From the IMG/VR virus record IMGVR_UViG_2579778773_000004, positions 1-17,454 of that record: a stretch of 17,454 nucleotides of DNA, one strand, 5' to 3'. Shown here one piece after another: positions 1 through 15,231 of this stretch. The translations under genes and the position numbers were made by a program. Each line of letters opens with the position of its first letter. Position 1 is the first letter of the stretch. Source of the DNA: a virus. Taxonomy: Duplodnaviria; Heunggongvirae; Uroviricota; Caudoviricetes. The notes under the pieces were generated by a model. The model worked only from the letters and a program-made list of their open reading frames with translations. It searched no databases and had not been told where the DNA came from.

Positions 1-148
1 GTTATTACCCGATCTCGATGGAAGTTATTGAGTGATCTCCTTTCATGAAAATACGCATTAATAAACAGTTTCTCAATTATTAGTCAGCATCATCAGAAGA
101 AACCCCTCTCCAAAGATAATTTTATAAAATAATATAAATGTCCACGCC

Positions 149-210
149 TGGCACGGAGTAGACTGGCTATCTAAGCTAAAGGTCTGCTGTGAGCGAAAAC
201 CGGACATGTA
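149..210. repeat. Junction element copy A (core TGGCACGGAGTAGAC at 149-163, plus a GCGAAAAC box at about 193-200)
   Basis: Read directly: TGGCACGGAGTAGAC...GTGAGCGAAAACCGGACA. Aligns by eye at roughly 70% identity over about 55 bp with copy B at 2794-2866 (TGGCACGGAGCGGAC...GTGCGAAAACAGACA). Lies downstream of the 211-aa cargo gene on the - strand. Confidence 0.6.
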
Positions 211-516
211 CATATCTGTCAAAAAAGCAATTTTTAGCTGCCACTTCCAGTGGATGGCGGTCGGTCAGGAGATAATAGAAACAAAACATAATCATTAAAT
301 GACTGAAAAATGAAAATTGTATAAACATTCATCTTAGATGACAATTTCAAATGCATCTCTATAATTTCCCCTAGTTCAAACCAGACAGAATCTAACCACT
401 GCAAGTAGTTTTAAAATCATAGGAAAATAACGTGCATCAGCAGAAGCATATGGAAAATACACAACACATTTCAAAAATACATACTTTTAAAATTTTCATT
501 GACTGATATTTTTAAT

Positions 517-1152
517 TTATTTTCGTAAAAAAATCGACGCCCTATCCGGGTTTACTTTACATAGATGAGAAAGATATAGCGCCCTTCGATTAAATTTGCC
601 TTCAGTAAGGTCATCAATGTTTTTCCTGAATGGGTACTTAATCCGTGCAGCTATGTCAAAGTCACTAATGCTTGCATGAGCTTTGGTAAGTTTAGCTATC
701 CCATAAGTGCCATAGCCAAAGTAGCAACAGGATATATATGCTATGCAGATATCATCTGCTGTTGTTGCTTTCCTGATAAGAATGGCTAATATTTGCTCTC
801 TTATTTTTCTTCGAACTGTTTTCTCATATCTCTTAGTTATTGTTCTAACAAACTGTTGGTCTATAGTACTTGCGCCTTGATGAATGTTTTTAAATAATCT
901 CAGATATATAGTTCTTAAAATAGCAACTGGATCAACTCCCCTGTGTAATAGTTGCCGATGATCCTCAGCCACTCTTAATATATCAATTAAAGATAAAGAT
1001 ATAGATCTTTCACTTATCGAACTAAGCCTTATATAATCAATACATTTATAATAATCTTCCATAATACTTTTAACCCTGAATTTAAAAACCATTTCTGCCA
1101 ATAGCAAGTATGGCAATGACAGTAAGGTAATCAAAAAGCGCTTCGCTGCCAT
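517..1152 (-). CDS. Hypothetical membrane-anchored protein (cargo gene, 211 aa from the internal start MAAKRFLITLL...); second gene of a two-gene operon
   Basis: ORF track gives 517..1188 (223 aa). I prefer the ATG at 1152 because AGGAG sits 7 nt upstream (minus-strand reading CAGGAGACGTGAA-ATG). N-terminal hydrophobic stretch FLITLLSLPYLLLAEMVF suggests a TM helix or signal anchor. A 200+ codon ORF in very AT-rich DNA is unlikely by chance. No family recognised. Confidence 0.55.
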   Translation of the reverse strand: MAAKRFLITLLSLPYLLLAEMVFKFRVKSIMEDYYKCIDYIRLSSISERSISLSLIDILRVAEDHRQLLHRGVDPVAILRTIYLRLFKNIHQGASTIDQQFVRTITKRYEKTVRRKIREQILAILIRKATTADDICIAYISCCYFGYGTYGIAKLTKAHASISDFDIAARIKYPFRKNIDDLTEGKFNRRALYLSHLCKVNPDRASIFLRK

Positions 1153-1679
1153 TTCACGTCTCCTGATGTATCTGCAGCGGTGGACCAAAATTTGCCATGC
1201 ATAGCATCTGCATTCACCTTTTGGAAATACAGCAAAATGGTATAACTCCTTAACTCACCTTCCATTTTTATATTCAATGAGGCATGATTTTTCCTTAAGT
1301 AATTTCTCTTAATCACCCCTCGAACCTCTCCAATACTTCTATGCTTACCAGTGTATGGTCTTATATTATTATTGTTTTCAACGTCTTTTGTTTTCTCAAT
1401 AAACCCTTCAATATTATTGTTGTCACATATTAAAGTCAGTGTATAAAACGTTTTTAAATTCAAGTAAGGATTATACGCAGATTTTAGTGTTTTACATTCA
1501 ACTTCAAAGACGCCCGAAAAATTTGGTGGCGGTTTAATATATTCTTTGAATATAAAAATCAATACAGCCGCAATAAGAGTAGCAACAGCACCACTTAAGA
1601 TTTGATTTGTGGAAATAAAGGTTAGAGATGGCTCAAGCCATTCCCAAAATATGTTGAAAAAATCAGTAAATTTATTCAT
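1131..1679 (-). CDS. Hypothetical single-TM membrane protein (cargo gene, 182 aa); first gene of a two-gene operon
   Basis: ORF track entry. Hydrophobic segment ILSGAVATLIAAVLIFIF (residues about 27-45). Its 3' end overlaps the start of the downstream gene by 22 nt, suggesting translational coupling. Very AT-rich. RBS is weak (AAAGAAA). No family recognised. Confidence 0.5.
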   Translation of the reverse strand: MNKFTDFFNIFWEWLEPSLTFISTNQILSGAVATLIAAVLIFIFKEYIKPPPNFSGVFEVECKTLKSAYNPYLNLKTFYTLTLICDNNNIEGFIEKTKDVENNNNIRPYTGKHRSIGEVRGVIKRNYLRKNHASLNIKMEGELRSYTILLYFQKVNADAMHGKFWSTAADTSGDVKWQRSAF

Positions 1680-2076
1680 AAATTTCTTTTGATAGTATGT
1701 TTTTTATATGATGTTACATTTTTGAGAAAAAAGCAACTTCGCCGATTAAAAACTATCTCGCTGGAATTTATGGGCATCATGTTATGAATACATTCTTATC
1801 CCATAGGGAATAAAACCCTATCTATAGAATAAAAATCCAAATTTTATCTTAATAAATCAGATAAAAGATACTTATACTACAAAGGTACTTGTGTAAGATC
1901 AAACTTTTAATCCTATAAGTTATAGATTGAAGCAACTGTGACTTATAGTGCGCACACTTAAGAATCTCCGATGACGATGGTAGCAGGAGACAACTTTTGA
2001 CAACTCACTCCTATTACCAACTTACTGACTTGCTCCGCGTTGAGAGATTTATAGTTATGCCAGCACTGTCCGCTTC

Positions 2077-2116
2077 TGGCACATTGCGGAAGGGCTAACG
2101 GCCCGGAGTAAGTGAG
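2077..2116. repeat. Junction element copy D (TGGCACATTGCGGAAGG, with flanking inverted repeat TCCGC/GCGGA)
   Basis: Read directly: GTCCGCTTCTGGCACATTGCGGAAGGGCTAACGGCCCGGAGTAAGTGAG. Shares TGGCAC-N3-GCGGA with copies B and C. TCCGC (2069-2073) pairs with GCGGA (2086-2090). Lies downstream of the 171-aa gene. Confidence 0.45.
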
Positions 2117-2180
2117 TAACGGATGTTTGCAAGCACTCTTACTGCTGACAATGATCGCATCCAAGATAAAATAGGTGGTG

Positions 2181-2696
2181 TCAAGGTACAGGTTCACCAA
2201 TATAAGTGTGTGTGCAGCAACGACATGTCACCTTAACGTCATCTCTTGTGATTGAAAGGTTTACCTGTTGCAGAATTCCATTCTCATCAACAAACAGACC
2301 TGGGTAAAAACTGCTTTCACCAATGCAGACTAAATCCCTTCGCTGATGCTCATGTAGCGCGACCAACCAGAATACCGGCTCGGTGGTATCAAGACGTCCA
2401 CATACTTCGCTGAATATTTCATTCCACGGCTTGCCAATCTCTTTGATCAGAAAATAAAACAACGGTGTGTAGTCTCGGCCACGCTTCTGTCTGCTATGCA
2501 TTGTCTCGCGCTTTACCAGTAGCTCATCTCCGACTTTTTTGCGATTTCGTTCCCACCGATACTCAGCACCCGGATTATTAGAATGGTGCCGCGTCGTCGT
2601 GTTGACGCTGCGATATAGTTTACGGGACTTATTCTGCTGATGAATACGCATAGCTCGATCTCGTACATCCTTTCTTTTGTGGGCCAGTAGCCCCAT
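2181..2696 (-). CDS. Hypothetical highly basic protein (171 aa), cargo gene of unknown function
   Basis: ORF track entry. AAGG lies 8 nt upstream of the ATG at 2696. Local GC (near 47% by eye) is higher than the flanking AT-rich cargo. Arg/Lys/His-rich N-terminal half. No motif recognised; could be a nucleic-acid-binding protein or a decayed gene. Confidence 0.4.
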   Translation of the reverse strand: MGLLAHKRKDVRDRAMRIHQQNKSRKLYRSVNTTTRHHSNNPGAEYRWERNRKKVGDELLVKRETMHSRQKRGRDYTPLFYFLIKEIGKPWNEIFSEVCGRLDTTEPVFWLVALHEHQRRDLVCIGESSFYPGLFVDENGILQQVNLSITRDDVKVTCRCCTHTYIGEPVP

Positions 2697-2793
2697 TCAG
2701 ACCTTGTGTTACTGTATAAAAAATGAACACCCTTAAAGGCTGTATCATTCTGCTCAAATACCATCCTACTGACAACTACCAAAGGTCGGATTC

Positions 2794-2866
2794 TGGCACG
2801 GAGCGGACAATCAAGTAGAACTGAAGGCCCGCTATGTGCGAAAACAGACAGACACAGATTGATCAC
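2794..2866. repeat. Junction element copy B (core TGGCACGGAGCGGAC, plus GCGAAAAC box)
   Basis: Read directly. Begins 17 bp downstream of the stop of the HExxH gene (2883). Homologous by eye to copy A. Contains a weak inverted repeat AGCGG...CCGCT. Confidence 0.6.
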
Positions 2867-2882
2867 AAACATACCTGAACCA

Positions 2883-3812
2883 TCAGGATTTTATATCCTT
2901 GTGTGGCTCTAATCCTTCAGAAAGGACTTTATCAAATGCAGCATATTGCCTTTGTAATTTACTTTCACATTCATACAGACTCTTTAAACTAACATCATCC
3001 ATAGATTGAAAGAGTCTTTTGTTATCAACTAAATAGGAGTATGCATTAAAAATAGAAACATCCATTATATCTTTCAGTTCTTCATCAGATAGTTTAGTCT
3101 TTTTACTTAAATGCTTAATCACATGTGACTGCAATGCATTTGCGCGAACCATGGCGGGAGGATATTTGCTATTCTTCCCTTCCAATTTACATAGAAAATT
3201 AAAGAAAAAAAATATTGATGTTAAAGATAAACTAACAAGTGTTTTCTCTTCTATTTTTTTCTCCGGGGCCTTTTTTATTGTATTTAAGACGACATCTGCA
3301 ACAAAGTATGCTGAGAATACATCTGCATCATACTCCATTAATGTTTTAATCTGATCTTCACTAAAATCTTCATCGACTACATTGTACCCCATTGAATAAA
3401 CTTGGTAATCACCAATCAGGTTTATTTCTTTACTTTTGGCTAATGATAAGTGTCCACGAGCGACATGTCCAAGTTCATGACCGAAAATATGGTGCCAAAT
3501 AAAGACACACCCTAACGCAACTGGAGCTTCCTTTTCTTTCAAGTCAGGGTATTCTCTCATGAAGAATTCTATATTTTCAGAAAGAATGTCAAACGTTATT
3601 GGTATCAACCCACTCAATAAAATAATATGGAAATTATTGTCTTTTTTTTGTGCGTGAGCATTAAGGTTAAAATCGTCCTTAATGTGCAGAGCTATTTTTT
3701 TACCATCCTCTTCAATAGCGGAGTTTATCTCTATCAATCCTTTTTTGAAGGTATCGTAAACAGGCAAGAAAAAACCACTTTCTATTTTCGAAATTTCATC
3801 ACGGGTCATCAT
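2883..3812 (-). CDS. Putative HExxH zinc metallopeptidase (309 aa; motif HIFGHELGHVARGH), possibly ImmA/IrrE-like; standalone cargo gene
   Basis: ORF track entry. Tandem ATG ATG start with strong RBS (minus-strand TTAAAGGTGGAAAT-ATGATG). HELGH is a zincin-type HExxH motif in a hydrophobic context. A 309-codon ORF in very AT-rich DNA is unlikely by chance. The family assignment is from motif recall only. Confidence 0.7.
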   Translation of the reverse strand: MMTRDEISKIESGFFLPVYDTFKKGLIEINSAIEEDGKKIALHIKDDFNLNAHAQKKDNNFHIILLSGLIPITFDILSENIEFFMREYPDLKEKEAPVALGCVFIWHHIFGHELGHVARGHLSLAKSKEINLIGDYQVYSMGYNVVDEDFSEDQIKTLMEYDADVFSAYFVADVVLNTIKKAPEKKIEEKTLVSLSLTSIFFFFNFLCKLEGKNSKYPPAMVRANALQSHVIKHLSKKTKLSDEELKDIMDVSIFNAYSYLVDNKRLFQSMDDVSLKSLYECESKLQRQYAAFDKVLSEGLEPHKDIKS

Positions 3813-3869
3813 ATTTCCACCTTTAACATGAAATCTAATTCTAATTGATAGGTCTACTTAGTTTCGCTC

Positions 3870-3898
3870 ATTGTACTATTTTATTAAAGTGGGTTGAA
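3870..3898 (-). promoter_or_regulatory. Candidate sigma70 promoter for the HExxH gene (-35 TTCAAC at 3893-3898, 17-nt spacer, -10 TACAAT at 3870-3875, minus-strand reading)
   Basis: Read directly from the reverse complement of 3841-3935. An AT-rich UP-like stretch (CTATATAAAAATGTAA) lies immediately upstream. Implied 5' UTR is about 50 nt. Confidence 0.3.
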
Positions 3899-3935
3899 GG
3901 TTACATTTTTATATAGCATGTCTACTGTCCCTTTG

Positions 3936-3981
3936 TGGCACAGAGCGGACTGTCAGATTAGTTTTTACTCTGTGCCATAGA
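3936..3981. repeat. Junction element copy C: perfect 10-bp inverted repeat TGGCACAGAG / CTCTGTGCCA around a 22-nt loop; putative end-of-operon hairpin after G
   Basis: Read directly: TGGCACAGAG-CGGACTGTCAGATTAGTTTTTA-CTCTGTGCCA. Shares the core TGGCAC(R)GAGCGGAC with copies A and B. Lies 30 bp downstream of the G stop. No U-tract follows on either strand, so it is not a canonical intrinsic terminator. Confidence 0.55.
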
Positions 3982-4011
3982 TGAGTAATCTCACACCAGA
4001 TCTAATACGAT

Positions 4012-4590
4012 TTATTGTGGCATTTCAGGCCATTCTATATCCGGAGCATCTTCCGGCTGAACGCGATTCAGTAGCACACGGTATTTTTTCCAGTGTGTCA
4101 GACTTAACTTTTCTTCCTCGGTAGCCATATCTAAATCGACAGCATCCTGCAGCGTGGCAATAATTTCACCTGCATATGCAATCAGCTCTTTCTTCTGAGA
4201 GTCAGCCGCTCTGACAAGCGCATCACGCTCTGCATTCTCATCATTCACCCACGCATTTCCGTTCCATTTCTGATAATCCCCATCCGGGGAAATGGCTGTC
4301 ACGTCTGGAGGTAATGCGCCAAGTTCAGAAATATAAATGGCTGCTCCTGTTTTTGTTTCATAGACAGTCTTTCCACGATGGTCTTCCACCAGATCCCATT
4401 TCATTTCATCTGCATTGAAAACGGCGGCAAAACCCACCGGAATATCTGGAGGTGCAATGTCTGTACTGTTTGCAGGAAGACCTGTATGCGGCGGAATATA
4501 TGCGTCACTTTCGCCAATAAATTCATTGGTTCCATCAAGTAAATTGAAAACGCGGATAGTTTGTGTCTCTGCACTCATTCTGAAAGTCAT
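4012..4590 (-). CDS. G: Tail fiber assembly protein (chaperone), gpG-like
   Basis: Position immediately after H with a TAATG stop/start overlap. C-terminus ...[10 protein letters not shown] matches the conserved gpG C-terminus as I recall it. The N-terminal part is variable, as expected for the partner of the fiber tip. Start at 4590 is preferred (GAGG upstream); alternative ATG at 4578. Confidence 0.85.
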
Positions 4591-6365
4591 TATGCCAGCC
4601 TCACAATATAGTTATACGCAACGTTTTTTACGGTGTTCTCTGAATTACCTGTGGCACTTACAGTGACGGTATGACTATGCGCGCCAATCGCAATGGAATG
4701 GCTGTGAGCACCAATGCCAACCGTGTGATTATGCTGACCAATGTCGACTGTATGGGCGTGTGCTCCCGCAGAGCTTGACACCTGGTTGGTTCCTGATACC
4801 TGTACGCGTTGTTTACCCCCGATGGAGTCACCACCGTAACGACCACCGACAGTGTGTGTATGCGCTCCCGTATTGTTTGTCGTTTTTGTGCCGTGGTTAA
4901 ACGTGCTGACCGTTTTTGTCCCGTAATCAAACGAACTGGTTGTTTTCGTCCCTAAATCCGTACTGGATGCACTGGCACTGTGGGTATGTGATTTAATTCC
5001 GTCCTGTTCCTGTGATAATACGGCGCGACCACTGGCGGGTTTGCCCTTGATTGTCCAGCCGCGCATATCTGGAATCACCCCTGACGGATAAGCTACTGCA
5101 AGCAGGGGATAGGCTGCTTTATCAAAAGTCTGCCCCTGCATCAGGGCATAGCCTGTAGGTACTGAATCAGAAGGCCACGGGATTGGAGCACCTACCGGAA
5201 AGTTGTTGTACCCGTCATGATGAATCAACTTCCAGCCTTTAAAAACACCTGCGCAAACTGCCGCAAAACCGATTACATCTCCATTAAAATCAATGCCAAT
5301 AACAGTATTGTATCCCTGAGTATTGCTGTGTGCAGAGTTGATGTAGTGCTTCCAGGTGTGTCCTCCAGGCATTCCATTCTTTGCTGAGGAAGCATTAAAA
5401 AAGCCACCACGCGTACGTAAATCAGTAGCAATATCACTTATATTTTCGGCGTACTCATTTAATCCCGCTCCTTTAGGTACTCGCTTGTTTGCATTGTCAT
5501 TAGCAGCTTTCACTGCTTTCGGAGTCGCGGCAAGCGTTTCAGAATCGCTGTTGGTGGCACTACTTAGCTGGACAAGCCCTTTTCGTGCCGTGGTGGCGTC
5601 CTGTGCGGTGTATTTGCCATTAGCAAGGTCATATGCTGTCTTAACCGCCTTTGGCGTTGCTGCGAGCGTCTCAGATTCGCTGTTGGTGGCACTACTTAGC
5701 TGAACAAGACCTTTTCGCCCCGTGCTGGCGTCCTGAGCGGTATATTTTCCGTTAGCAAGGTCATACGCTGCCTTAACCGCCTTCGGCGTTGCGGCCAGCG
5801 TTTCAGATTCACTATTGGTCGCGCTGCTTAACTGAGTAAAACCTTTTGCAGTCAGTGAGGCGTCCGGATGGCGTCGTGACTGTTCGTGCTCTGCAATTTT
5901 GTCATCAACGTAATCCTGCGTCGCCATCACCGTTGTGGTGTCGATGGTCAGATCCACTGAGGCCACACTGCTGACGATAATGACCATGCGGCAGGTCTGC
6001 GAACGTCCTGAGCCTTCGGCAAGGGCAGGCTTATAACTTTCGGCCATGTTCGCCACGGCAATTAACGCACCGGTATCATCGTACAGACCAAGTTCACGCA
6101 TCCAGAAACCGCCCACCTCCGGCGGGATGACCAGCTCTGCGATAATATAATTACTGTGTCGATTGTCCTGACTGATTTTATTCAGGGCATGTCGCCAGAC
6201 CTCATTAACAAGTTTTGTCTGTCCGGCATCCGGCACCGGCAATTGACCGCCACCGTCCCCGACGGCCATCGTGGTAATGTTGACCTTCCTGCCTCCCGGT
6301 GCAGTCGCCGCTGCCAGCTTTGCTGCACCGGCGGTAGTGATAACGGTTTGGAACTTTACGCTCAT
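4590..6365 (-). CDS. H: Tail fiber protein gpH-like (591 aa); P2-like N-terminal region, divergent His-rich C-terminal receptor-binding region
   Basis: N-terminal [40 protein letters not shown]... matches P2 gpH by recall. Internal tandem repeats [20 protein letters not shown] (phage tail fiber repeat). C-terminal GAHxHTV / HSH repeats. Confidence 0.93.
5496..5843. repeat. Tandem repeats of about 132 bp (2.6 copies) inside H, encoding the tail-fiber repeat G(F/L)[42 protein letters not shown]
   Basis: Visible at both protein level (residues about 175-290) and DNA level (three near-identical blocks between about 5490 and 5845). Confidence 0.85.
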
Positions 6366-6375
6366 TATTCCTCAC

Positions 6376-6906
6376 TTATCCTGGGTAAACCGTAATAACA
6401 TCGCCGTCATAAGCCACACCACCGGCAAACAGATAACCGGGGATGTCCTGGGTAATATTCAGACCAATAAGGTGACGACTTGCAGGTTTGGCATCGGCAA
6501 TCAGCCGTTCCATTTCCAGATACATCTCCTCCGTGATGCCGCTTTCCAGTACGCCGATATCAAGCCGGAAGGTGCCGGGCGGGTCGCTGTTTTCCCACCA
6601 CTCCGTCACGTTGATGAGATAGCCGAGCGGCTCCACCACACGGCGAATCGCACCAATAGTGCCCTTATGGCAGTGAATGAAATACGCATCGCGGATAACG
6701 GCGCGTTTTGTCGCTTCCGGCCACTTTTCATCCCAGCGGTCAACCGAAAATGACCACGCCAGCCACGGCAGCAGATTTGCCGGACAGGTGTCCGGGTTCC
6801 ACAGCTCACGAATACTGACCGGCGTTTTTTCAATTTCCGCACAGGCTTTTGCGGCGGCAACTTCAAGCGGTGATGAGCCTGTCGGCAGCAGTCGCGAATC
6901 ATTCAT
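6376..6906 (-). CDS. I: Baseplate protein gpI-like (176 aa)
   Basis: Length and position (between J and H) match P2 gpI. Overlaps the J stop by 8 nt. Confidence 0.9.
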   Translation of the reverse strand: MNDSRLLPTGSSPLEVAAAKACAEIEKTPVSIRELWNPDTCPANLLPWLAWSFSVDRWDEKWPEATKRAVIRDAYFIHCHKGTIGAIRRVVEPLGYLINVTEWWENSDPPGTFRLDIGVLESGITEEMYLEMERLIADAKPASRHLIGLNITQDIPGYLFAGGVAYDGDVITVYPG

Positions 6907-7807
6907 CCGAGCCTCCGGTCACGACGCTGTATTCGGTACAGAAAGACGCCTGCGTACTGTTGAGCACGATGTCGGCCAGTGGTGCAGCCAGTTCGACACG
7001 CTGCACGCCTTCCACATGCAAAGCGGCATAAATGGCAGACAGACGGATGTCGCGCCCCAGCCGGTGCTGTGCCGTGATATACGCTTCCAGTTCTTTCACG
7101 GCGGCCGCGCGAATGGGTTCTCTTTCAGGACCAGGGTAAAGGTAAAGCGTGGCGTTTATCTGGTATTCAACGATGGCAGCAGACTGCACGTTCACACGAT
7201 CGGCCACCGGTCTGACGTCCTCGCCATTAAGGGCGTTACGCACCACAGCCAGCAGGTCTTCGGATGCGACACCGTTATTTTCACGTGACAGCACAGAGAT
7301 GGTGACACAGGCCGGAGACGGACTGGTGACAGAGATATCCGCGACACGCCCGTCGGCACTGCGACCATGATACTGATAGGCGCCCACCGACCCGGCGACG
7401 CTTAAACCTTCAAACGCCTGCTGAATACGCAGACGATAATCCGTGTCAGATTCCATCACTGCCGGTGTCGGCGGGATGGTCGAATCATCTGCCGGGGTGA
7501 TAATCAGGCGCGCGGTGTTGTAATTGGCACCAATCACATCAAGGTCATTACCAGCGGCACAGGCCAGCATCACCGCCCGTGCGGCCTCATTCACACGCTG
7601 ACGCCAGATAAGCTCACGATAAGCATTTTCCTCCAGCAGTTTGACGAGAGGCTCGGATTCCAGCGTCAGGGTACGGGCAACCGCCTCCTGCTGGTCTTCC
7701 GGGTAAAGGGAAATCAGTGTCGCCTTGCGTTCGGCAAGAATGGTTTCAAAGTCCAGCTCCTCGACCACATCCGGTGCGGGTAGCTGGTTCAGGTCGATAA
7801 TCGGCAT
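6899..7807 (-). CDS. J: Baseplate wedge protein gpJ-like (302 aa)
   Basis: Length (302 aa) and synteny W-J-I match P2 gpJ. Sequence MPIIDLNQLPAPDVVEELDFETIL... recognised as gpJ-like. Confidence 0.93.
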   Translation of the reverse strand: MPIIDLNQLPAPDVVEELDFETILAERKATLISLYPEDQQEAVARTLTLESEPLVKLLEENAYRELIWRQRVNEAARAVMLACAAGNDLDVIGANYNTARLIITPADDSTIPPTPAVMESDTDYRLRIQQAFEGLSVAGSVGAYQYHGRSADGRVADISVTSPSPACVTISVLSRENNGVASEDLLAVVRNALNGEDVRPVADRVNVQSAAIVEYQINATLYLYPGPEREPIRAAAVKELEAYITAQHRLGRDIRLSAIYAALHVEGVQRVELAAPLADIVLNSTQASFCTEYSVVTGGSDE

Positions 7808-7811
7808 GGTT

Positions 7812-8159
7812 TCAACTCACAGGGATGGTTAACGAAAGTTGCTGGCCGGTGTCGTTGTGCTGGCCGTTTAACGTAACTGTCATTCGCCCGTCAAAACTGC
7901 GCTCAGTGGTGACGGATGACAGGGTGACGCGGGGTTCCCATTTCAGCACCGCCATGTAACAGGCGACCTTAATCTGCAACTCAAGCGCCGGGGTCTGCGG
8001 CTGGTCAATCATTGACGCCAGCAACGAGCCGTAATCACGACGCATCACCCGTGAGCCGACCGGTGTGCGCAGGATATCGCCGATACTCTGGCTGATATGC
8101 TCAAGGTCAGTGACAGTCAGGCCATCACTGCAATTCATTCCGAGATAACGCGCTGTCAT
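7812..8159 (-). CDS. W: Baseplate wedge protein gpW-like (115 aa, gp25-like)
   Basis: Length (115 aa) and synteny V-W-J match P2 gpW. Start overlaps the V stop. Confidence 0.93.
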   Translation of the reverse strand: MTARYLGMNCSDGLTVTDLEHISQSIGDILRTPVGSRVMRRDYGSLLASMIDQPQTPALELQIKVACYMAVLKWEPRVTLSSVTTERSFDGRMTVTLNGQHNDTGQQLSLTIPVS

Positions 8160-8791
8160 AGAGGACTCCCGGTTGTGCCGCCGCTGTCGCCGGGGTGTTT
8201 ATGGGTATGCAGCACCTTACCGTTTGATGAGAGTTCACCACCGGTGTGTTCAATGTTGCCGCGCATCGTCCCACCCTTCTGCACTTCCAGCGTGCCGGTA
8301 GTCAGTTTGTTAGTGCAGACCACCTCCGGTGTGTCCAGGGTGACGCGGGTTGATGCTTTCACCATGACCACCGGCACCGTGGCAGTAACAGAATCAGAAG
8401 CCGTCACGCTGGCCGTTTTAATTCCGCTTACCGTGAGTGCACTGGTTTCGGGTTCATACTCAATCACCGCCCCGTCAGGGAAACGGATATGCAGGGCATC
8501 CGCCGACGCAGACGGCGCGGGGTTATCGCCGGAATAAATCCCCGGCAGAACGAACGCCGTGTCGAGTTCACCGCCCACAGCCAGAATCAGCACCTGTTCC
8601 CCCACGGAAGGTGCCCACCATGTGCGCGAACGTCCGGCACGATGGGTCAGCCACTGAAGCCAGTCGGTGCACATGCCGCCGGTCTGCACACGGCAGCGAC
8701 CGGCGTTAAGGTCGGTTTCGACGATAATGCCGGTGCGGATCATGTTGCGCAGTGCGCGCGCGAGTTCCTGAATATTTGCGAGAGTGTTCAT
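8156..8791 (-). CDS. V: Baseplate spike / assembly protein gpV-like (211 aa)
   Basis: Length (211 aa) and synteny match P2 gpV. A 66-bp gap from S contains a GC-rich hairpin; this is the expected site of the V late promoter. Confidence 0.93.
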   Translation of the reverse strand: MNTLANIQELARALRNMIRTGIIVETDLNAGRCRVQTGGMCTDWLQWLTHRAGRSRTWWAPSVGEQVLILAVGGELDTAFVLPGIYSGDNPAPSASADALHIRFPDGAVIEYEPETSALTVSGIKTASVTASDSVTATVPVVMVKASTRVTLDTPEVVCTNKLTTGTLEVQKGGTMRGNIEHTGGELSSNGKVLHTHKHPGDSGGTTGSPL

Positions 8792-8803
8792 AACGGGAAG
8801 GAT

Positions 8804-8826
8804 GCCGCCGGGTCATACCGGCGGCA
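8804..8826 (-). other. GC-rich hairpin (GCCGCCGG-N7-CCGGCGGC) in the S-V intergenic gap; possible terminator or attenuator between late operons
   Basis: Perfect 8-bp inverted repeat read directly at 8804-8811 and 8819-8826. Not followed by a clean U-tract. Confidence 0.3.
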
Positions 8827-8857
8827 ATGTGACGATGAGGTGTCAGGAATGGCACAA

Positions 8858-9310
8858 CTAACGGTCGAGGTGAGCCAGAATAATCTCTTCAATCATCTGC
8901 ACATCCTCACCGGTAAAGCCGAGCAGAGGACGCGCCGGATAATCAATTTTCTTACCGTCTTTCCGGGTTTCTTCCGACAGACCGAACTGATGCACGCTGG
9001 CGATTTTCGGTGACTTCCCGCCGTAAAACTCCATTGATGCCTGTTCCGGGCTGGCGTGGATATGCAAAAAACGACTGGTGATAAGTTTCGCAAACATTTT
9101 TCGCTTAACACGACCAGTCTTTTTTCTGGCGCTCTGCTGCTGGCGTGGCGCGTAGGGTGTGCCGTCCGGGGCTTTCTGAGCCATCACCCGACGCTGCTGA
9201 CTCTGCCGCAGACGCTTCGCCAGCTCTGCACTCAGCCGCCGACGCCCTGACGGTGACAGCGACTCAATAAGTCCGGTCAGCCGGTCTTCAAAACGCTTAA
9301 ACTCATTCAT
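8858..9310 (-). CDS. S: Tail completion protein gpS-like (150 aa)
   Basis: Length (150 aa) and synteny R-S-V match P2 gpS. Start overlaps the R stop. Confidence 0.93.
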   Translation of the reverse strand: MNEFKRFEDRLTGLIESLSPSGRRRLSAELAKRLRQSQQRRVMAQKAPDGTPYAPRQQQSARKKTGRVKRKMFAKLITSRFLHIHASPEQASMEFYGGKSPKIASVHQFGLSEETRKDGKKIDYPARPLLGFTGEDVQMIEEIILAHLDR

Positions 9311-9770
9311 CCCACTTGCTCACCAGTTCGCCATTGATATAAAGCTCCATCGGGCGGGTGACCGGCTCCGGCGGCGTGGGTTCCGGGATATTCTTCACAT
9401 GCAGCGCGCCGTCCACCTCACTGACCAGCGTGCGCTCGGTCAGCATCAGGCTGATGCTGATATCAAAGCTGCTGTCATTGTTGATGTCTGCATAAAACGT
9501 GAAGCCCTTTTTCTGGCCTTCGTCGGTGGTCATGATGTCGGGCTGATTTTCCCGCAGCCACGCCAGCACCGGCACGATGAGCAGGTCAAAATCACCGGTA
9601 AAGTCGGTCACAATGACATTGAGCGTGTAACGCTTTTCGAATGACAACGACGCCGCCAGTGTGGAGGCAATACTCCCGTTATCCACGAATATCCGCAGCA
9701 TATCGGGGTTAGTTTTCAGCACCGTGACGGCATCAGTCAGCGCCCTGCGCAGGCTGTCGGGTTTGAGCAT
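9303..9770 (-). CDS. R: Tail completion protein gpR-like (155 aa)
   Basis: Length (155 aa) and synteny lysB-R-S match P2 gpR. Confidence 0.93.
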   Translation of the reverse strand: MLKPDSLRRALTDAVTVLKTNPDMLRIFVDNGSIASTLAASLSFEKRYTLNVIVTDFTGDFDLLIVPVLAWLRENQPDIMTTDEGQKKGFTFYADINNDSSFDISISLMLTERTLVSEVDGALHVKNIPEPTPPEPVTRPMELYINGELVSKWDE

Positions 9771-10023
9771 CGTTTTCGTCCTGACAGTGTTTAATCATTT
9801 TTACCTGGCTGGCACAACGTGCCAGCGCGTTCTCGAGCTGCCGGATATCGGCACTTAAATCGCCGTTCGTCTCCGGGTCACTGCCCGGCATCGGGCAAAG
9901 GCTCACTTTCGGGCAGGCGTTGGCGACAATCACTGGCGTCGGTGCAGGCGGGGCGCTGGTGCAACCGGCGCACAGCATCAGGCAGGTCAGCACCGTACCA
10001 GCGGCGAAAATCTTCGTTTTCAT
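9733..10023 (-). CDS. lysC: LysC, Rz1-like outer-membrane lipoprotein spanin (96 aa), nested out-of-frame in the 3' part of lysB and extending into the 5' end of R
   Basis: Internal start MKTKIFAAGTVLTCLMLCAGCTSAPPAPTP... at 10023 (ATG read at 10021-10023 on the minus strand). Lipobox LCAGC followed by a Pro-rich region. The track ORF (135 aa) is an upstream extension; 96 aa matches P2 lysC. Confidence 0.8.
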   Translation of the reverse strand: MKTKIFAAGTVLTCLMLCAGCTSAPPAPTPVIVANACPKVSLCPMPGSDPETNGDLSADIRQLENALARCASQVKMIKHCQDENDAQTRQPAQGAD

Positions 10024-10303
10024 TAAGTAACCTCGTGATGGTTTTCTCGCGCTGTGCTTCACGCTTCGCGGCGTTCTCCAGTTCCTGACGCAGTGCCACC
10101 TGCGCCAACTCGTTTTTGTCTGCCCTGGTGAGGGCAGCATGAAGCTGATTTTTCAGCATGATGATGGTCGTCTGCTGTTCACTGGCGACGTTGTTCACCC
10201 TGTCCAGCGAGGCGCGCAGGCTGGCGTTTTCATGCTTCGCCAGAAACAGTCCCGCCACCGCCAGCGATAACAACACAACCAGCACAATCATCAGCTTTGA
10301 CAT
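9878..10303 (-). CDS. lysB: LysB, Rz-like inner-membrane spanin (141 aa)
   Basis: N-terminal TM MSKLMIVLVVLLSLAVAGLFLA followed by a charged, coiled-coil-like region. Length and position match P2 lysB. Confidence 0.9.
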   Translation of the reverse strand: MSKLMIVLVVLLSLAVAGLFLAKHENASLRASLDRVNNVASEQQTTIIMLKNQLHAALTRADKNELAQVALRQELENAAKREAQREKTITRLLNENEDFRRWYGADLPDAVRRLHQRPACTDASDCRQRLPESEPLPDAGQ

Positions 10304-10716
10304 GGTTCCCGCCCCTCAAGACGCTGACGGCAGGCCGTGCGTATCAGCCGGAAAAACAGCGACGCCACGAGATAAATCAGCGCAGTAAAAATCCACCCGG
10401 TGGCAACCAGCGAGATAAACGTCGCCACCATCACTACCAGAGCCGCCGCCCGTCTGCACCACGGCACCGGCTGCAAAAACAGCGACGTGACAATCTTCAC
10501 GGCCAGCGATTCCGGTGGCAACTCCCGCCCGTAGCGTTCCAGCACATACTCCGTGGCATACACGCCAACACCACCGGCAACCACACAGATAACCGTCACC
10601 AGAATCGCCCAGGCAGCGACAAAATTGACGGCCACGCTCTGCGGGTAAATCAGGGACAGTGCCAGCATCAGCGCCAGCGACACATTCAGCATCAGTGAAA
10701 GGGATAATTTCTTCAT
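10291..10716 (-). CDS. lysA: LysA, multi-TM lysis-timing protein (141 aa)
   Basis: Several hydrophobic segments. Length and position after K match P2 lysA. Confidence 0.88.
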   Translation of the reverse strand: MKKLSLSLMLNVSLALMLALSLIYPQSVAVNFVAAWAILVTVICVVAGGVGVYATEYVLERYGRELPPESLAVKIVTSLFLQPVPWCRRAAALVVMVATFISLVATGWIFTALIYLVASLFFRLIRTACRQRLEGREPCQS

Positions 10717-10730
10717 GGTGTTTACTCCGT

Positions 10731-11228
10731 TTAAGCCAGTACGCCGCCAGCGGTACGCCAGACGGTGACCAGTTTTTCCAGTGAATGCTCACGCTGACCG
10801 TAACCGGCACCCGGCAGGGACGCCCAGATATTTCGACAGCGTGAAATGGCGCGCTCAATACGTCCCGCCCGGATGTCATCCAGCGCACCGCGTTCGCGGA
10901 TCAACTGAATGGCGAGTCTGTCCTGTGACAGCGGACTGAAATCCGGCAGGGCAAGCTGTTTGCGGTAATGCGGCCAGAACAGGTAAAGCTGCTGATAGCG
11001 ACCGGAGGCCGTGGATTTTTCACCGCGACGGTTAAACACCTTCGCCGGTCGGCCATGTGCGAACGGGTGGTCACTGTAGTCGGTGAAGATTTCCGGCTTC
11101 CCGTCCAGTCCGGTGACTATCACGTCATAGCCACGGTTTTTCGTCAGCGGATGATTCGCCGTCCCTTCGGACACCGCCAGCATGTCGAGAAAGGCGGCGA
11201 TATTCTGGTGCGTGTTAATTACCGGCAT
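10731..11228 (-). CDS. K: Endolysin gpK-like (165 aa)
   Basis: Length (165 aa) and position after the holin match P2 gpK. Sequence MPVINTHQNIAAFLDMLAVSEGT... recognised as the P2-type endolysin. Confidence 0.93.
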   Translation of the reverse strand: MPVINTHQNIAAFLDMLAVSEGTANHPLTKNRGYDVIVTGLDGKPEIFTDYSDHPFAHGRPAKVFNRRGEKSTASGRYQQLYLFWPHYRKQLALPDFSPLSQDRLAIQLIRERGALDDIRAGRIERAISRCRNIWASLPGAGYGQREHSLEKLVTVWRTAGGVLA

Positions 11229-11509
11229 TACGGTTTCCCCCTGCCCTTAAAGCGGCGCTGAATGGCAATCTCAATCACCTGATAACCGGCGATACCCAGC
11301 ATGGAGCCGATGCCGCACACCGCAGGCAGTGACAGGTCAGGAAACTGCACCAGAACAACACCGGCAACCATCGAGACAAAACCACCGAGCAACATGCGCC
11401 CGATAAACAGACGCGGGGTGATGGGTTCACCACCGGCAAGCACCTTGCCGACAACAATCAGCACCCCAATCATGAAAAGCGACAGGACGCTTTTTTCTTC
11501 TGCTGTCAT
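11228..11509 (-). CDS. Y: Holin gpY-like (93 aa)
   Basis: Small protein with hydrophobic TM segments and a basic C-terminus (RRFKGRGKP). Length and position match P2 gpY. Confidence 0.92.
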   Translation of the reverse strand: MTAEEKSVLSLFMIGVLIVVGKVLAGGEPITPRLFIGRMLLGGFVSMVAGVVLVQFPDLSLPAVCGIGSMLGIAGYQVIEIAIQRRFKGRGKP

Positions 11510-11512
11510 GCG

Positions 11513-11716
11513 TTACTCCCACAGATTGACAGTTTCAGCCACGGGCGCGGTCTGAACGTCGGGCAGTTCGACGGCGGTGCCGTGTGGCAGCACCGCACCC
11601 AGTTCAGCCAGTCCCGGATTTGCGGCGAGCACGGTCTCAACCACGCCCTCAGTGCGCCCGTAATACCGGACACAAATGGCGTCGAGCGTGTCGCCCTGTA
11701 GCGCAAAGGTCTTCAT
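11513..11716 (-). CDS. X: Tail protein X-like (67 aa from internal start MKTFALQGDTL...)
   Basis: The track ORF (90 aa) is an upstream extension through L. The ATG at 11716 overlaps the L stop (ATGA). 67 aa matches P2 gpX. Confidence 0.88.
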   Translation of the reverse strand: MKTFALQGDTLDAICVRYYGRTEGVVETVLAANPGLAELGAVLPHGTAVELPDVQTAPVAETVNLWE

Positions 11717-12225
11717 CAGATTTGACTCACGATGCAGCGCGGCTTGTCCTGGATGCGCGCCACTGCCCAGCGCATATCCCGCCACAACTCATCAATGGTG
11801 CTGTCAATGCTGTCGGCCTTCTTGTCGCCTTTCGCACTGGCATCCACGCCGCGGTAACGCTCATAAAGCGACGCGGTCGCCATCGCACACACGGCGCGCT
11901 CGTAGTAAAATACTTTGATGCTTTCACCGTCGATGTCGTCCGCCGGGACGTCCGCCAGACGCGTAAAACCGGCGGCAATTTTCTGTTCGCGGTACTCGTA
12001 CAGCTCCGCATTCGTCTCCGCCATACCTGACTTGATGGCCTCACGCAGACGGGCGGGGGCGACGGTCTGCTCAAGGCGCATACGTTCCCGGACGCGCTTC
12101 GGGTCGATATCGGGAAAAAAGAACGTGTTTTTAATCACCGGCTCGTCGCCTGCCGGTTGCGGGATGACCACCGTACCCTCACCGGATACAGGAGCCTCCT
12201 TTCGCGGAATAATCAGCGTCATCAT
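11716..12225 (-). CDS. L: Head completion / stabilisation protein gpL-like (169 aa from internal start MMTLIIPRKEAP...)
   Basis: The track ORF (189 aa) is an upstream extension. Tandem ATG ATG at 12225-12220 on the minus strand. 169 aa matches P2 gpL. Confidence 0.92.
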   Translation of the reverse strand: MMTLIIPRKEAPVSGEGTVVIPQPAGDEPVIKNTFFFPDIDPKRVRERMRLEQTVAPARLREAIKSGMAETNAELYEYREQKIAAGFTRLADVPADDIDGESIKVFYYERAVCAMATASLYERYRGVDASAKGDKKADSIDSTIDELWRDMRWAVARIQDKPRCIVSQI

Positions 12226-12324
12226 GACTACCTCTGAAAAGTCGGGCGGTGGACGCCGGTGCAGTGTCAGATGATTCACCCTCACTGACCGGCGTGCCGC
12301 CCTGGCGCGGGGCGCATTCGGTTG

Positions 12325-13068
12325 TTAACTGGCTTTCTTTTTCGGGCGTCCACGTTTTGCCGGGGTCACGCTCCGGGTCTTACGCGGGGTGCGGGTGACC
12401 GCTTTGGGCTGCGGCTCCGGCTTCGGTTTCAGCTCCCGCTCCAGTCGTTCAATCTCTTTTTTAACGCCTGCCTGACAGTCGAGCTGTGTCGCACGTTGCA
12501 GGTGCGCCAGCGCACCGGCGGCATCACCAGCGTCACGCAGAAACAGACCGGTGATTTTGTGCAGATTTGCGCGCACTTCATCAGGCATGTCAGCCGTGGC
12601 GGTCAGTTCAAGGGTGTCCGTCAGCAGGCGGGTATCCACGGATTCACCGGCAGCGTGGGCGCGCATGGCCGCGAGCGCGACCTCCTCGGTGAACATGTAC
12701 GGCGGGGTGCGGCGGTGTTTACCCGGCATGGTCAGACCGTACTTCAGGGCATAACGGGCAATCTCCAGCGCACCGGCAATATCGCCGGTATCCAGACGCC
12801 ACAGCATGACCGTCATCAGAATGTCATCCTGTGCACCTTTGCCCTGCTCCAGCACGCCGTTCACCCACGGCAACCAGAACGGCAGCAGTTCGCGTTTTTT
12901 CGCGGCCTTCAGCTCTTTTGAATAAATCGCTTTCAGTGTGCGCTGGTCTGCGGCGAGCTTAACCAGCATCTGCTCATAGACAGTTGCATGTCGCAGCGGG
13001 GCGGCTTCCCGCTGCGCGGTCATCGCTGCCGAGACCCGCATCATGTGGCGCTGTGCGGGACTCGTCAT
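12325..13068 (-). CDS. M: Terminase small (endonuclease) subunit gpM-like (247 aa)
   Basis: Length (247 aa) and synteny N-M-L match P2 gpM. Basic C-terminal tail. Confidence 0.93.
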   Translation of the reverse strand: MTSPAQRHMMRVSAAMTAQREAAPLRHATVYEQMLVKLAADQRTLKAIYSKELKAAKKRELLPFWLPWVNGVLEQGKGAQDDILMTVMLWRLDTGDIAGALEIARYALKYGLTMPGKHRRTPPYMFTEEVALAAMRAHAAGESVDTRLLTDTLELTATADMPDEVRANLHKITGLFLRDAGDAAGALAHLQRATQLDCQAGVKKEIERLERELKPKPEPQPKAVTRTPRKTRSVTPAKRGRPKKKAS

Positions 13069-13071
13069 CGG

Positions 13072-14145
13072 TTACGCTCCCGGCTCTGCGGTCGCTTTAG
13101 CCGGTGTGGAGAAGTCACCGACCTTGATTTTTTCCACCAGACAACCGGCGGCGTAGTCTTCCACCACGTAATCAATGTTCATTGACTCGTAGTTCTCCAC
13201 GCGGTCGAGTTTCGGGTTTTCCTCAATCACGCGGCGATGGCTGTCATCCATGTAGTAGATGGACAGGTTTTCCAGCTTCGTGATGAGCATCGCATCCGCC
13301 GGGAAGTACGGGACGCGTACCGCTGGCAGGTTGCCGATGCGTTTCTGGCTGATGATGACGTCAGCGGCCAGCATTTCGCTGTTGTCCTGCTCCTTGTTGA
13401 CGATGGGAAAATACTTGTCCGCCAGTAGCTGACGTCCCACAATCACCACAAGGTCAGGTTCTTCCTGATACCACGGCTCAATCAGGTTGTTGGTCGCATC
13501 CATCACCAGTGCATCAAGGCTGGCATAATCACCGCCCTTACCCACGCGGATGACCTCAGAGGTGGTGCGGCCTTCCTCGTCAGTGACCTTGCTCATCACG
13601 CGCGCCGGGGCTTCATTGCGGTATTTCTGCAGCCAGCCGACCGCCACATCCTGCAGCATCGGATTACTGTTGCGGTCAGAGGTTTCGGCACGCTTCACGC
13701 CGTTAAAACCGGCCATGATGAAATCAAGGGACTGGCGTTTGATAATGGCGTTACGGATACGGAGCTGGAAATCCTGATAACGCGCCCACAGGTCCAGCGT
13801 TTTGTAGCGGATATAAAAATCGAAGTTAACCTGGTCGCATTCGTACTTGTTTGACGCCAGCTTCGAGAAGTCCTTCGGCTGACGCTCGGTGCCACCGGCG
13901 GTGTCGGTGGTGCTGGCAATGGGGCCGGTGACACCGATACCAATTTTTTCCCCTTTCATTTCGCTGACCGGCACAATGTTGATGCGGGTCAGAAAGTCAG
14001 AGGACTCCTGCATGGTGTTCATCAGGGTCTGGGTGACCGACGGTTCAACGGTGAATTTTTTCGACACATCACCGGCGTCGATGCCGTTCAGTTCGGCAAC
14101 ACGGGACAGGTAGGCATTAAATTTAAAACGGGTTTCCTGGCGCAT
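13072..14145 (-). CDS. N: Major capsid protein gpN-like (357 aa)
   Basis: Length (357 aa) and synteny O-N-M match P2 gpN. RBS AGGAAC lies 5 nt upstream of the ATG. Confidence 0.96.
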   Translation of the reverse strand: MRQETRFKFNAYLSRVAELNGIDAGDVSKKFTVEPSVTQTLMNTMQESSDFLTRINIVPVSEMKGEKIGIGVTGPIASTTDTAGGTERQPKDFSKLASNKYECDQVNFDFYIRYKTLDLWARYQDFQLRIRNAIIKRQSLDFIMAGFNGVKRAETSDRNSNPMLQDVAVGWLQKYRNEAPARVMSKVTDEEGRTTSEVIRVGKGGDYASLDALVMDATNNLIEPWYQEEPDLVVIVGRQLLADKYFPIVNKEQDNSEMLAADVIISQKRIGNLPAVRVPYFPADAMLITKLENLSIYYMDDSHRRVIEENPKLDRVENYESMNIDYVVEDYAAGCLVEKIKVGDFSTPAKATAEPGA

Positions 14146-14203
14146 ATTTGTTCCTGAAATTAAGGGTTAATCGTGAAGGTTTTCCCGGACTGACTGACGC
14201 CGG

Positions 14204-15058
14204 TCAGCAGTTCGTCATCAGGGCGTCTCCGCCACCGCCGGTGGCCTTGCTGCGGCGCTGCTGGGTCAGACTTTCGGTGTTGTCGAGACTGTTTTTCAGG
14301 CGGGTGAATGCCTGGCTGGTTTCATCCGCCCTGTCAGTCACCTCCTGCTTAAGTGCGGAAAAGGCGTTTTCCATCTCAGCGAGGCGCTGCTCAGTGGCGC
14401 TCAGTTTTTCCTGCACATGTTCAGCAACAGCGGTCACCGCTTCATGCACGTCATTCAGACGGGCGTCATCGCTGGCCTGTTTGCGGCCAAAAATGGATTT
14501 CACCTTTTCGGTCAGGGCGGTGAACACGGTTTCAGGCAGGTCTTCAAATTCCAGCTCAACGGGCGTTGCCACTGAAATCAGGTTTTCAGGGCTTAATTTG
14601 AAGCGGTTCAGGGGGTTGTGTTTTGCCGTGCGGCAGAATTCCAGGTATTCCGTGCCGAGGCTTGCCGGGTCATCGGTGACGGCCAGACCCACCAGATAAC
14701 ATTTGCCGGTATTGGCAAAGTTCGGCTGAATTTCCATTGAGGTGTAGACCTTCTGCGCGGCCTTGTTCATCGCGATAAGGTCATCGGTCGGGGTGATTTT
14801 CGCAAACAGCGCCCATTTGCCTTTCAGCGCCGAATCATCGTCAATCTTTTCGGCCTTCAGTTCGACCACATCGCCATAACGCTTAAAAATACCGTCAGGC
14901 AGGATGCCGCGCAGATGTTCCAGGTTAATGCGGCAACCATAGACTCGCGGGTCAAAGGTTTCGGCCATTTCCTGAATATCCTGCGCACTGATGACACGCC
15001 CGTCACAGGTGTCACCCTCAACGCCGATACGAAAGAATTTTGAGACTTTTTTTGCCAT
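14204..15058 (-). CDS. O: Capsid scaffolding protein gpO-like (284 aa from internal start MAKKVSKFFRIGVEGDTCDGR...)
   Basis: The track ORF (306 aa) is an upstream extension. ATG at 15058 (CAT read at 15056-15058). 284 aa matches P2 gpO. Confidence 0.93.
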   Translation of the reverse strand: MAKKVSKFFRIGVEGDTCDGRVISAQDIQEMAETFDPRVYGCRINLEHLRGILPDGIFKRYGDVVELKAEKIDDDSALKGKWALFAKITPTDDLIAMNKAAQKVYTSMEIQPNFANTGKCYLVGLAVTDDPASLGTEYLEFCRTAKHNPLNRFKLSPENLISVATPVELEFEDLPETVFTALTEKVKSIFGRKQASDDARLNDVHEAVTAVAEHVQEKLSATEQRLAEMENAFSALKQEVTDRADETSQAFTRLKNSLDNTESLTQQRRSKATGGGGDALMTNC

Positions 15059-15231
15059 TGTCAGGAGTCCTGAATAGTGATTAGAGGAGTCACATGTCGG
15101 CATCAGTTTCCCGACGATGCGCATCCTCTGCCATCAGTCCCGGATGGCTTATCACTGACACAACAGCACCTTAGCGAATCGCGGGGCGCGACTCAGTAGC
15201 CTTGCCGTGTATTCATCACGGCGAGGTATTC
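15059..15231. promoter_or_regulatory. Divergent late-promoter region between O (-) and P (+); expected site of Ogr-dependent late promoters
   Basis: Established P2 biology: the P-Q and O-to-S operons diverge from this intergenic region under Ogr-activated promoters with a TGT-N12-ACA element near -55. Partial dyads seen: TGG-N12-ACA at 15145-15162 and GTCGG-N10-CCGAC at 15096-15115. No exact TGT-N12-ACA found by eye. Confidence 0.5.

Follow-up and report, generated by a model that had tools for sequence, protein, structure and literature searches.

To our knowledge, beta-barrels of the Cap15 type are known only as receivers of nucleotide signals in CBASS (phage-defence systems that signal by cyclic oligonucleotides), Panoptes and Panoptoo, and GT51 enzymes only as builders of the cell wall and targets of antibiotics. 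The S-2TMbeta proteins Cap15, OptE and PanE act as effectors at the membrane and bind cyclic nucleotides through their barrel (PMC12657218; PMC13640738). The variable loci of P2 and P4 are known reservoirs of defence systems, many of them unannotated (PMC9122126; PMC13586616), and the old/tin locus of P2 has been described as a defence hotspot (PMC9122126). Here we describe an overlapping gene pair, gene A and gene B, in which a predicted membrane-tethered barrel is coupled to an apparent GT51 enzyme. The pair lies in the window, that is, the whole stretch of 17,454 nucleotides analysed here (positions 1 to 17,454 of the IMG/VR virus record IMGVR_UViG_2579778773_000004). It is a self-contained, horizontally mobile two-gene module that travels as accessory cargo (a 'moron') of temperate phages and other mobile elements. 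We give a probability of roughly 0.45 to the reading that it is a sensor-plus-enzyme conflict (anti-phage) module, in which a membrane-tethered ligand-binding barrel works with an interchangeable peptidoglycan enzyme.

A coupled gene pair in mobile cargo

The two genes overlap by 22 nucleotides (1131-1152), an AGGAG motif (1164-1160) stands 7 nucleotides upstream of the ATG of gene B, and both coding sequences are annotated in RefSeq; the overlapping pair of open reading frames that an earlier note on this DNA had picked out is real. For gene B, an alternative TTG-extended version of 223 amino acids is also in the list of open reading frames. The extreme AT-richness described in that note was confirmed, the GC content being 0.328 at 517-1960 against 0.558 in the prophage backbone (4000-17454), and so was its statement that frames of this length are unlikely by chance. 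The longest stop-free run in the pair region is 245 codons, whereas shuffles of this 33%-GC region gave a mean of 75 and a maximum of 179; as none of the 2000 shuffles reached 182 codons, the two frames are not products of chance. Ratios of nonsynonymous to synonymous substitution rates (dN/dS) of about 0.1-0.27 for both genes, obtained from three orthologous pairs (Enterobacter, Leclercia and Serratia), indicate purifying selection. A consensus promoter scan upstream of gene A gave sites not above the number expected by chance.

In every enterobacterial locus examined (Leclercia, Enterobacter, Serratia and other Enterobacterales), the two genes are neighbours and overlap. The 22-nucleotide overlap is identical in the Serratia, Enterobacter, Leclercia and Cedecea loci, and more distant pairs overlap by 4-61 nucleotides. 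Overlapping pairs were also found around relatives of gene B at 57%, 41% and 40% identity and in Bacteroidota relatives at 27-31% identity, and the barrel and transglycosylase identities of the relatives diverge together (72/68, 56/57, 38/41, 30/40 and 27/29%). A profile search gathered 386 representative clusters of the barrel family, mostly of 160-200 amino acids, and GT51 is the operon partner of the barrel in every pair examined. Natural fusions exist as well: in a scan of 76 barrel-family members, a GT51 domain was found at the C terminus of four and an Amidase_3 domain (E=7e-34) at the C terminus of one (P0200, 383 amino acids), so that in P0200 an N-acetylmuramoyl-L-alanine amidase replaces the GT51 domain, with no hydrophobic segment between the domains. 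Such a swap of enzymes behind the same barrel is modularity of the kind seen in immune effectors. Taken together, the conserved overlapping arrangement, the co-divergence and the fusions are strong evidence from sequence comparison that the gene A and gene B proteins act together, and the coupled, co-occurring unit that the earlier note had proposed is supported.

One barrel relative adjoins a divergent Transgly protein of 443 amino acids, and one (L026) has no partner. In two metagenome bins a frameshifted GT51 gene lies beside an intact barrel gene (L003 8528-9170, Pseudescherichia; L022 5545-6080, Cyclobacteriaceae), which could reflect either real decay of the enzyme gene or assembly or sequencing errors. 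Frequent loss of the enzyme in Bacteroidota, suggested by truncated transglycosylase calls, was considered and given little weight: the reading frame is intact in L025, where the truncation is a gene-calling artefact, and two other cases are frameshifts in metagenome bins. These observations bear on a guard or decoy arrangement resembling Panoptes, in which gene A would encode a membrane-disrupting toxin restrained by the product or substrate complex of a constitutively active GT51 enzyme and a phage disturbing the supply of the cell-wall precursor would free it; a simpler form of the idea is an addiction pair of the toxin-antitoxin kind. Barrel genes that persist with the partner absent or frameshifted are not expected if the barrel is a toxin needing its partner, although the frameshifts may be sequencing errors, and the gene order is the reverse of that in optSE. 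We regard such an arrangement as the least probable of the explanations considered here.

The window is a P2-like prophage with terminase, capsid, lysis, baseplate and tail-fibre genes. In Escherichia coli CE0011b the same prophage extends further to the left, with the sheath, tube, tape-measure, D and ogr genes; positions 1-4000 are therefore a variable cargo locus between the tail-fibre assembly gene (4012-4590) and the sheath gene, and their GC content is 36% against 56% in the backbone. Five cargo genes, the pair and three others, occupy this locus in the E. coli prophage, and in a P2-like prophage of Serratia the pair alone fills it. Elsewhere the pair stands between antiterminator Q and holin in one IMG/VR lambdoid contig and between tail fibres and integrase in another, and further copies adjoin a P4-type primase, or RES-Xre and VapBC toxin-antitoxin genes. 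In all, the pair was found in five or more kinds of mobile context, which supports the prophage cargo locus assumed in the earlier note. The pair is present in 2 of 5426 complete E. coli genomes, and neither megablast with the locus nor tblastn with the gene A protein found a match in the GenBank phage collection.

In the first of these lambdoid contigs (L031 6391-9780), the insertion site of the pair lies between antiterminator Q and the holin-endolysin-spanin cassette, where Stx phages carry their Shiga toxin genes. At this site the pair would be transcribed late in infection, together with the lysis genes.

A GT51-like enzyme and a Cap15-like barrel

The earlier note had described each protein as a single hydrophobic helix followed by a soluble domain without a recognisable motif. 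The helices were confirmed in both proteins (scores in Table 1), and both are predicted to be membrane-anchored; the rest of the description did not hold, since gene B carries a GT51 domain and gene A a Cap15-like beta-barrel. The gene B protein, which NCBI annotates as a transglycosylase-domain protein, matches Pfam PF00912 Transgly (E=1.6e-22; 80.2 bits against a cut-off of 27; profile positions 17-127 of 178) and aligns with the glycosyltransferase domains of class A penicillin-binding proteins (PBPs) and MtgA, with the motifs AED, GASTIDQQ and RKIRE. The conserved motifs of the forms EDxxFxxHxG, GxSTIxQQ and RKxxE align to PBP1a structures, and all five GT51 motifs are present, both catalytic glutamates included. 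Across 21 family members, down to 30% identity, E63-D64, H70, G72, D74, G93, S95, T96 and Q100 are invariant, as are R115, K116 and E119. The AlphaFold2 model (predicted local distance difference test, pLDDT, 89.4; predicted template-modelling score 0.87) gave 3nb6, 2oqo, 3vmt and 3hzs as top Foldseek matches (probability 1.00; TM-scores 0.55-0.66), and the predicted fold, which is that of GT51 (a lysozyme-like head with a jaw), superposes on the glycosyltransferase domain of Aquifex PBP1a and on Staphylococcus aureus MtgA. Gene B thus appears to encode a compact and apparently active GT51 peptidoglycan glycosyltransferase with intact catalytic residues.

Homology to housekeeping proteins, which the earlier note had named as a result that would speak against its proposal, does exist at the level of the domain. 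However, gene B scores 37.4 bits against the MtgA equivalog cut-off of 182.65 (NCBIfam TIGR02070) and falls far under the cut-offs of all NCBIfam PBP equivalogs. Because every equivalog cut-off failed and the gene is horizontally mobile, gene B is, by these sequence criteria, not an orthologue of MtgA or the PBPs, nor a housekeeping orthologue.

These results also bear on the possibility that the pair is involved in no phage conflict at all and supplies an auxiliary peptidoglycan polymerase with a membrane regulator, which would help the lysogen under envelope stress (lysogenic conversion) or be neutral. Gene B does share its domain family with the housekeeping synthases; in Enterobacter cloacae and another enterobacterial lineage, the pair occupies a fixed chromosomal islet among metabolic genes in many assemblies, and the Bacteroidota copies are not visibly on mobile elements. 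Such a function is nevertheless hard to reconcile with the patchy distribution in E. coli, the foreign composition, the variety of mobile contexts and the failed equivalog cut-offs. In addition, what the partner resembles is an immune effector, not one of the known PBP activators, and the enzyme has been exchanged for an amidase in one fusion. Thus, we consider an accessory envelope function quite unlikely.

For gene A, the AlphaFold2 model (pLDDT 84.8) consists of two N-terminal helices, the second being the transmembrane helix, and an eight-stranded barrel. The barrel domain carries an STAADSSG motif, and its near-invariant residues are G56, G92, E95, K96, R114, G121, R144, G162, F164 and G173. 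Helix 2-24 is amphipathic, with a hydrophobicity below 1.0, and only residues 26-44 are of transmembrane grade; a second strong hydrophobic segment occurs in only 5 of 111 barrel-family members, the median N-terminal tail being 11 residues. In its model, gene A has the C-terminal eight-stranded barrel of about 110 residues that characterizes the S-2TMbeta family, and a single transmembrane-grade segment where that family has two N-terminal transmembrane helices. Designed barrels, avidins and lipocalins are among the Foldseek matches of the model, and the best natural structural match is Cap15, with 14% identity in the structural alignment. UniProt names an 85%-identical Leclercia orthologue (P0006) 'SMODS-associating 2TM beta-strand rich effector domain-containing protein'. 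Gene A itself has no Pfam, NCBIfam, PADLOC or PHROGs match, and Pfam scans of its close homologues and of the 76 barrel-family members, gene A included, gave neither S_2TMBeta nor another family for the barrel.

In one locus (L018; 3880-5106, 5565-6362 and 12093-14255), a distant pair, whose barrel is 30% and whose transglycosylase is 40% identical to the window proteins, follows closely downstream of a DUF4145 gene; two genes for class III nucleotide cyclases (PF00211) are in the vicinity but not adjacent. The proximity of the cyclases may be a coincidence or a hint at a nucleotide signal.

Table 1. Positions of the gene pair and its features in the window
Feature	Position	Strand	Details
Gene A	1131..1679	minus	ATG start; 182 amino acids; predicted membrane-anchored beta-barrel protein; RefSeq WP_029397132.1
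Gene A transmembrane helix, residues 26-44, QILSGAVATLIAAVLIFIF	1548..1604	minus	Predicted; Kyte-Doolittle 19-mer score 2.38
Gene A eight-stranded beta-barrel, residues ~56-179	1143..1514	minus	Predicted from conservation and fold matches
Gene A stop codon TGA	1133-1131	minus	List of open reading frames and sequence
Gene B	517..1152	minus	ATG start; 211 amino acids; GT51 peptidoglycan glycosyltransferase-like protein; RefSeq WP_029397131.1
Gene B N-terminal hydrophobic helix, residues 6-25	1078..1137	minus	Kyte-Doolittle 1.73; near-invariant Pro14 (at least 90% conserved); basic residues on both flanks
Glu63 codon, putative catalytic glutamate of GT51 motif 1 (AEDHRQLLHRGVD)	964..966	minus	Invariant in 21 members; aligned to the PBP1a ED motif
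Glu119 codon, putative second catalytic glutamate, GT51 motif 3 (RKIRE)	796..798	minus	Invariant in 21 members; aligned to PBP1a RKxxE
Translational coupling region	1131..1164	minus	AGGAG 1164-1160, gene B ATG 1152-1150, gene A stop 1133-1131
AT-rich intergenic region upstream of gene A, presumed promoter site	1680..1957	minus	Sequence

Membrane topology and possible function

The distribution of lysine and arginine around the transmembrane helix of the barrel proteins (0.68 on the N-terminal side against 2.02 on the C-terminal side; C side favoured in 83 and N side in 14 of 111 sequences) predicts that the barrel lies in the cytoplasm, and relatives with a signal peptide ahead of this helix also place it there. 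The barrel-GT51 fusions have no transmembrane-grade segment between barrel and enzyme, and the stand-alone GT51 enzymes of Bacteroidota have no transmembrane-grade N terminus. Because the barrel is predicted to be cytoplasmic and these enzymes have no such segment, the GT51 domain may sit on the cytoplasmic face as well, where it would encounter lipid II that has yet to be flipped. The gene B proteins of enterobacteria do have a transmembrane-grade N-terminal helix (Kyte-Doolittle 1.7-2.4) after a short basic N terminus; this helix, with basic residues on both sides and a conserved central proline, could be a normal anchor or re-entrant.

If the helix is a normal anchor, the enzyme may instead face the periplasm, with gene A as its partner or regulator, and thicken or repair the peptidoglycan locally, so that DNA injection by incoming phages that have to digest the wall is blocked and the host survives. 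Proteins that act in exclusion at the level of the envelope are common among prophage morons, an example being T4 Sp, an inhibitor of the tail lysozyme. Superinfection exclusion of this kind would fit the carriage of the pair by several phage types, the apparently intact catalytic residues and an N-terminal helix that, after its basic N terminus, is like those of MtgA and the class A PBPs. In contrast, it would leave the role of a Cap15-like barrel unexplained, it does not agree with the positive charges and signal-peptide relatives that put the barrel in the cytoplasm, and the fusions and Bacteroidota transglycosylases have no transmembrane-grade segment that would place the enzyme across the membrane from the barrel. 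We therefore regard it as unlikely, although it deserves more weight than the guard arrangement or the accessory function.

In the sensor-plus-enzyme reading that we prefer, gene A would be tethered to the inner membrane, its eight-stranded barrel having the architecture of Cap15 and OptE, which are cyclic-nucleotide-sensing, membrane-disrupting effectors. The two proteins would be made in coupled amounts and work as one complex, with the barrel as the part that senses, at the membrane, either a small ligand or a cue of infection. As the output, the GT51 enzyme would perturb use of the cell-wall precursor, that is, of lipid II or the undecaprenyl carrier, possibly with membrane disruption by oligomerized gene A protein in addition, and phage infection would be aborted or excluded. 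A more specific proposal, to which we give only a small chance, is that the GT51 domain, and likewise the amidase of the fusion, lies on the cytoplasmic side with the sensor barrel, the module being an immune effector of a new type. A phage cue would then cause lipid II to be polymerized or destroyed on the wrong side of the membrane, the undecaprenyl carrier would be trapped and wall synthesis shut down, and the infected cell would arrest or lyse before phage release.

Several results weigh against the sensor-plus-enzyme reading. Folds of the eight-stranded meander-barrel kind are common, and in the comparison with gene A, barrels designed de novo reach scores as good as that of Cap15. Pfam S_2TMBeta found no match among the gene A protein, 18 close homologues and 75 more distant members, and no Cap15 chain was found when the PDB was searched with a profile of the barrel family; the one indication to the contrary is the UniProt name of the orthologue P0006. 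As the fold is common and homology to Cap15 is not established at the sequence level, we call gene A Cap15-like in its modelled architecture and do not assign it to the family. Furthermore, no CD-NTase, mCpol or DAC gene is adjacent to the pair in the loci examined, GT51 enzymes normally act in the periplasm, and many chromosomal copies of the pair stand among ordinary metabolic genes. PADLOC v2.0.0 gave no match at E<=1 for either protein and nothing relevant for ten neighbouring proteins.

The interpretation of the earlier note, a candidate membrane-acting exclusion or defence module, is thus upheld in part: the pair is coupled, membrane-anchored by prediction and mobile, whereas its domains are not motif-free and PADLOC gives no defence match. 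An abortive-infection or exclusion function is one that we infer from the context of the pair. Searches of the literature and databases (with the RefSeq accessions, and with transglycosylase, GT51 or lipid II combined with defence terms) found no description of a barrel-GT51 pairing, and the pair is not mentioned in the supplementary files of the P2-hotspot papers, including the tables of PMC9122126. We regard the pair as a good candidate for a new module of phage defence or exclusion, with a minority chance that its effector mechanism is of a categorically new kind.

Should the pair restrict phages, it would bring a new effector chemistry, the use of the cell-wall precursor, into bacterial immunity and would give a function to a barrel family that comprises several hundred clusters and is without a Pfam model. 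If the enzyme acts as a cytoplasmic effector, this would be the first defence system to use a peptidoglycan synthase as its weapon and the first GT51 enzyme on the inner leaflet. A GT51 enzyme of possibly unusual topology or regulation is also relevant to cell-wall biology and to inhibitors of the moenomycin type. The module, of E. coli origin and small at 1.2 kb, is directly testable.

Neighbouring cargo and relation to known systems

In the E. coli prophage the pair belongs to a larger block, on the minus strand in the window, which further comprises a gene for an HExxH protein (309 amino acids, 2883-3812), a gene of 171/156 amino acids (2181-2696) and, just left of the window, a gene of 259 amino acids. 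The block is 99.9-100% identical in three E. coli contexts, namely the P2 prophage, a chromosomal integrase island and a conjugative IncFIB/FIC NDM-4 plasmid (copies at L001 10765-15413 and L027 6868-11516). We considered whether the three other genes form one system with the pair and rejected this: the pair occurs without them in the Serratia P2-like prophage, in lambdoid contigs and in several chromosomes, and they are therefore probably separate cargo. The 171/156-amino-acid gene has a GC content of 46% against 33% for the pair, and Pfam, PADLOC, PHROG and NCBIfam gave no match for it. In Enterobacter cloacae, a homologue with 80.6% identity stands immediately upstream of the pair (window 2182-2670 aligned with L005 7201-7689).

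Positions 57-4065 of the window match the CE0011b and NB4833 copies of the block at 99.9% or more, and positions 1-56 match neither, so that the left cargo junction differs in the source genome. The CE0011b prophage (L002 17678-21302) is otherwise near-identical and carries an IS2 element between the HExxH gene and the tail-fibre assembly gene. Its tail-fibre gene is annotated as three pseudogene fragments, and this prophage copy is therefore probably defective. In the window, the tail-fibre protein H (4590-6365, minus strand) has a motif of about 43 amino acids in three tandem copies.

With regard to position, the pair is comparable to the accessory exclusion genes old, tin and Z/fun of P2, all being variable cargo flanked by conserved core genes of P2; in that phage, Z/fun lies at the G-FI locus. 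The pair shows no relation in sequence to old, tin or fun, and none was to be expected; its proteins and its presumed mechanism differ from theirs. With regard to the enzyme, gene B shares with MtgA and the glycosyltransferase domains of class A PBPs the five GT51 motifs, a superposable predicted fold and an N-terminal hydrophobic helix. In contrast to those proteins, it is shorter (211 amino acids), is carried in AT-rich mobile cargo, scores 37 bits where the MtgA equivalog cut-off is 183, and is obligately paired with, or fused to, a barrel protein, and the fused and Bacteroidota versions have no transmembrane-grade segment to export the domain. With regard to the barrel, most members of the gene A family have one transmembrane helix, whereas Cap15, OptE and PanE of CBASS, Panoptes and Panoptoo have two, and the partner here is not a nucleotide synthase but a GT51 enzyme or, in one fusion, an amidase.

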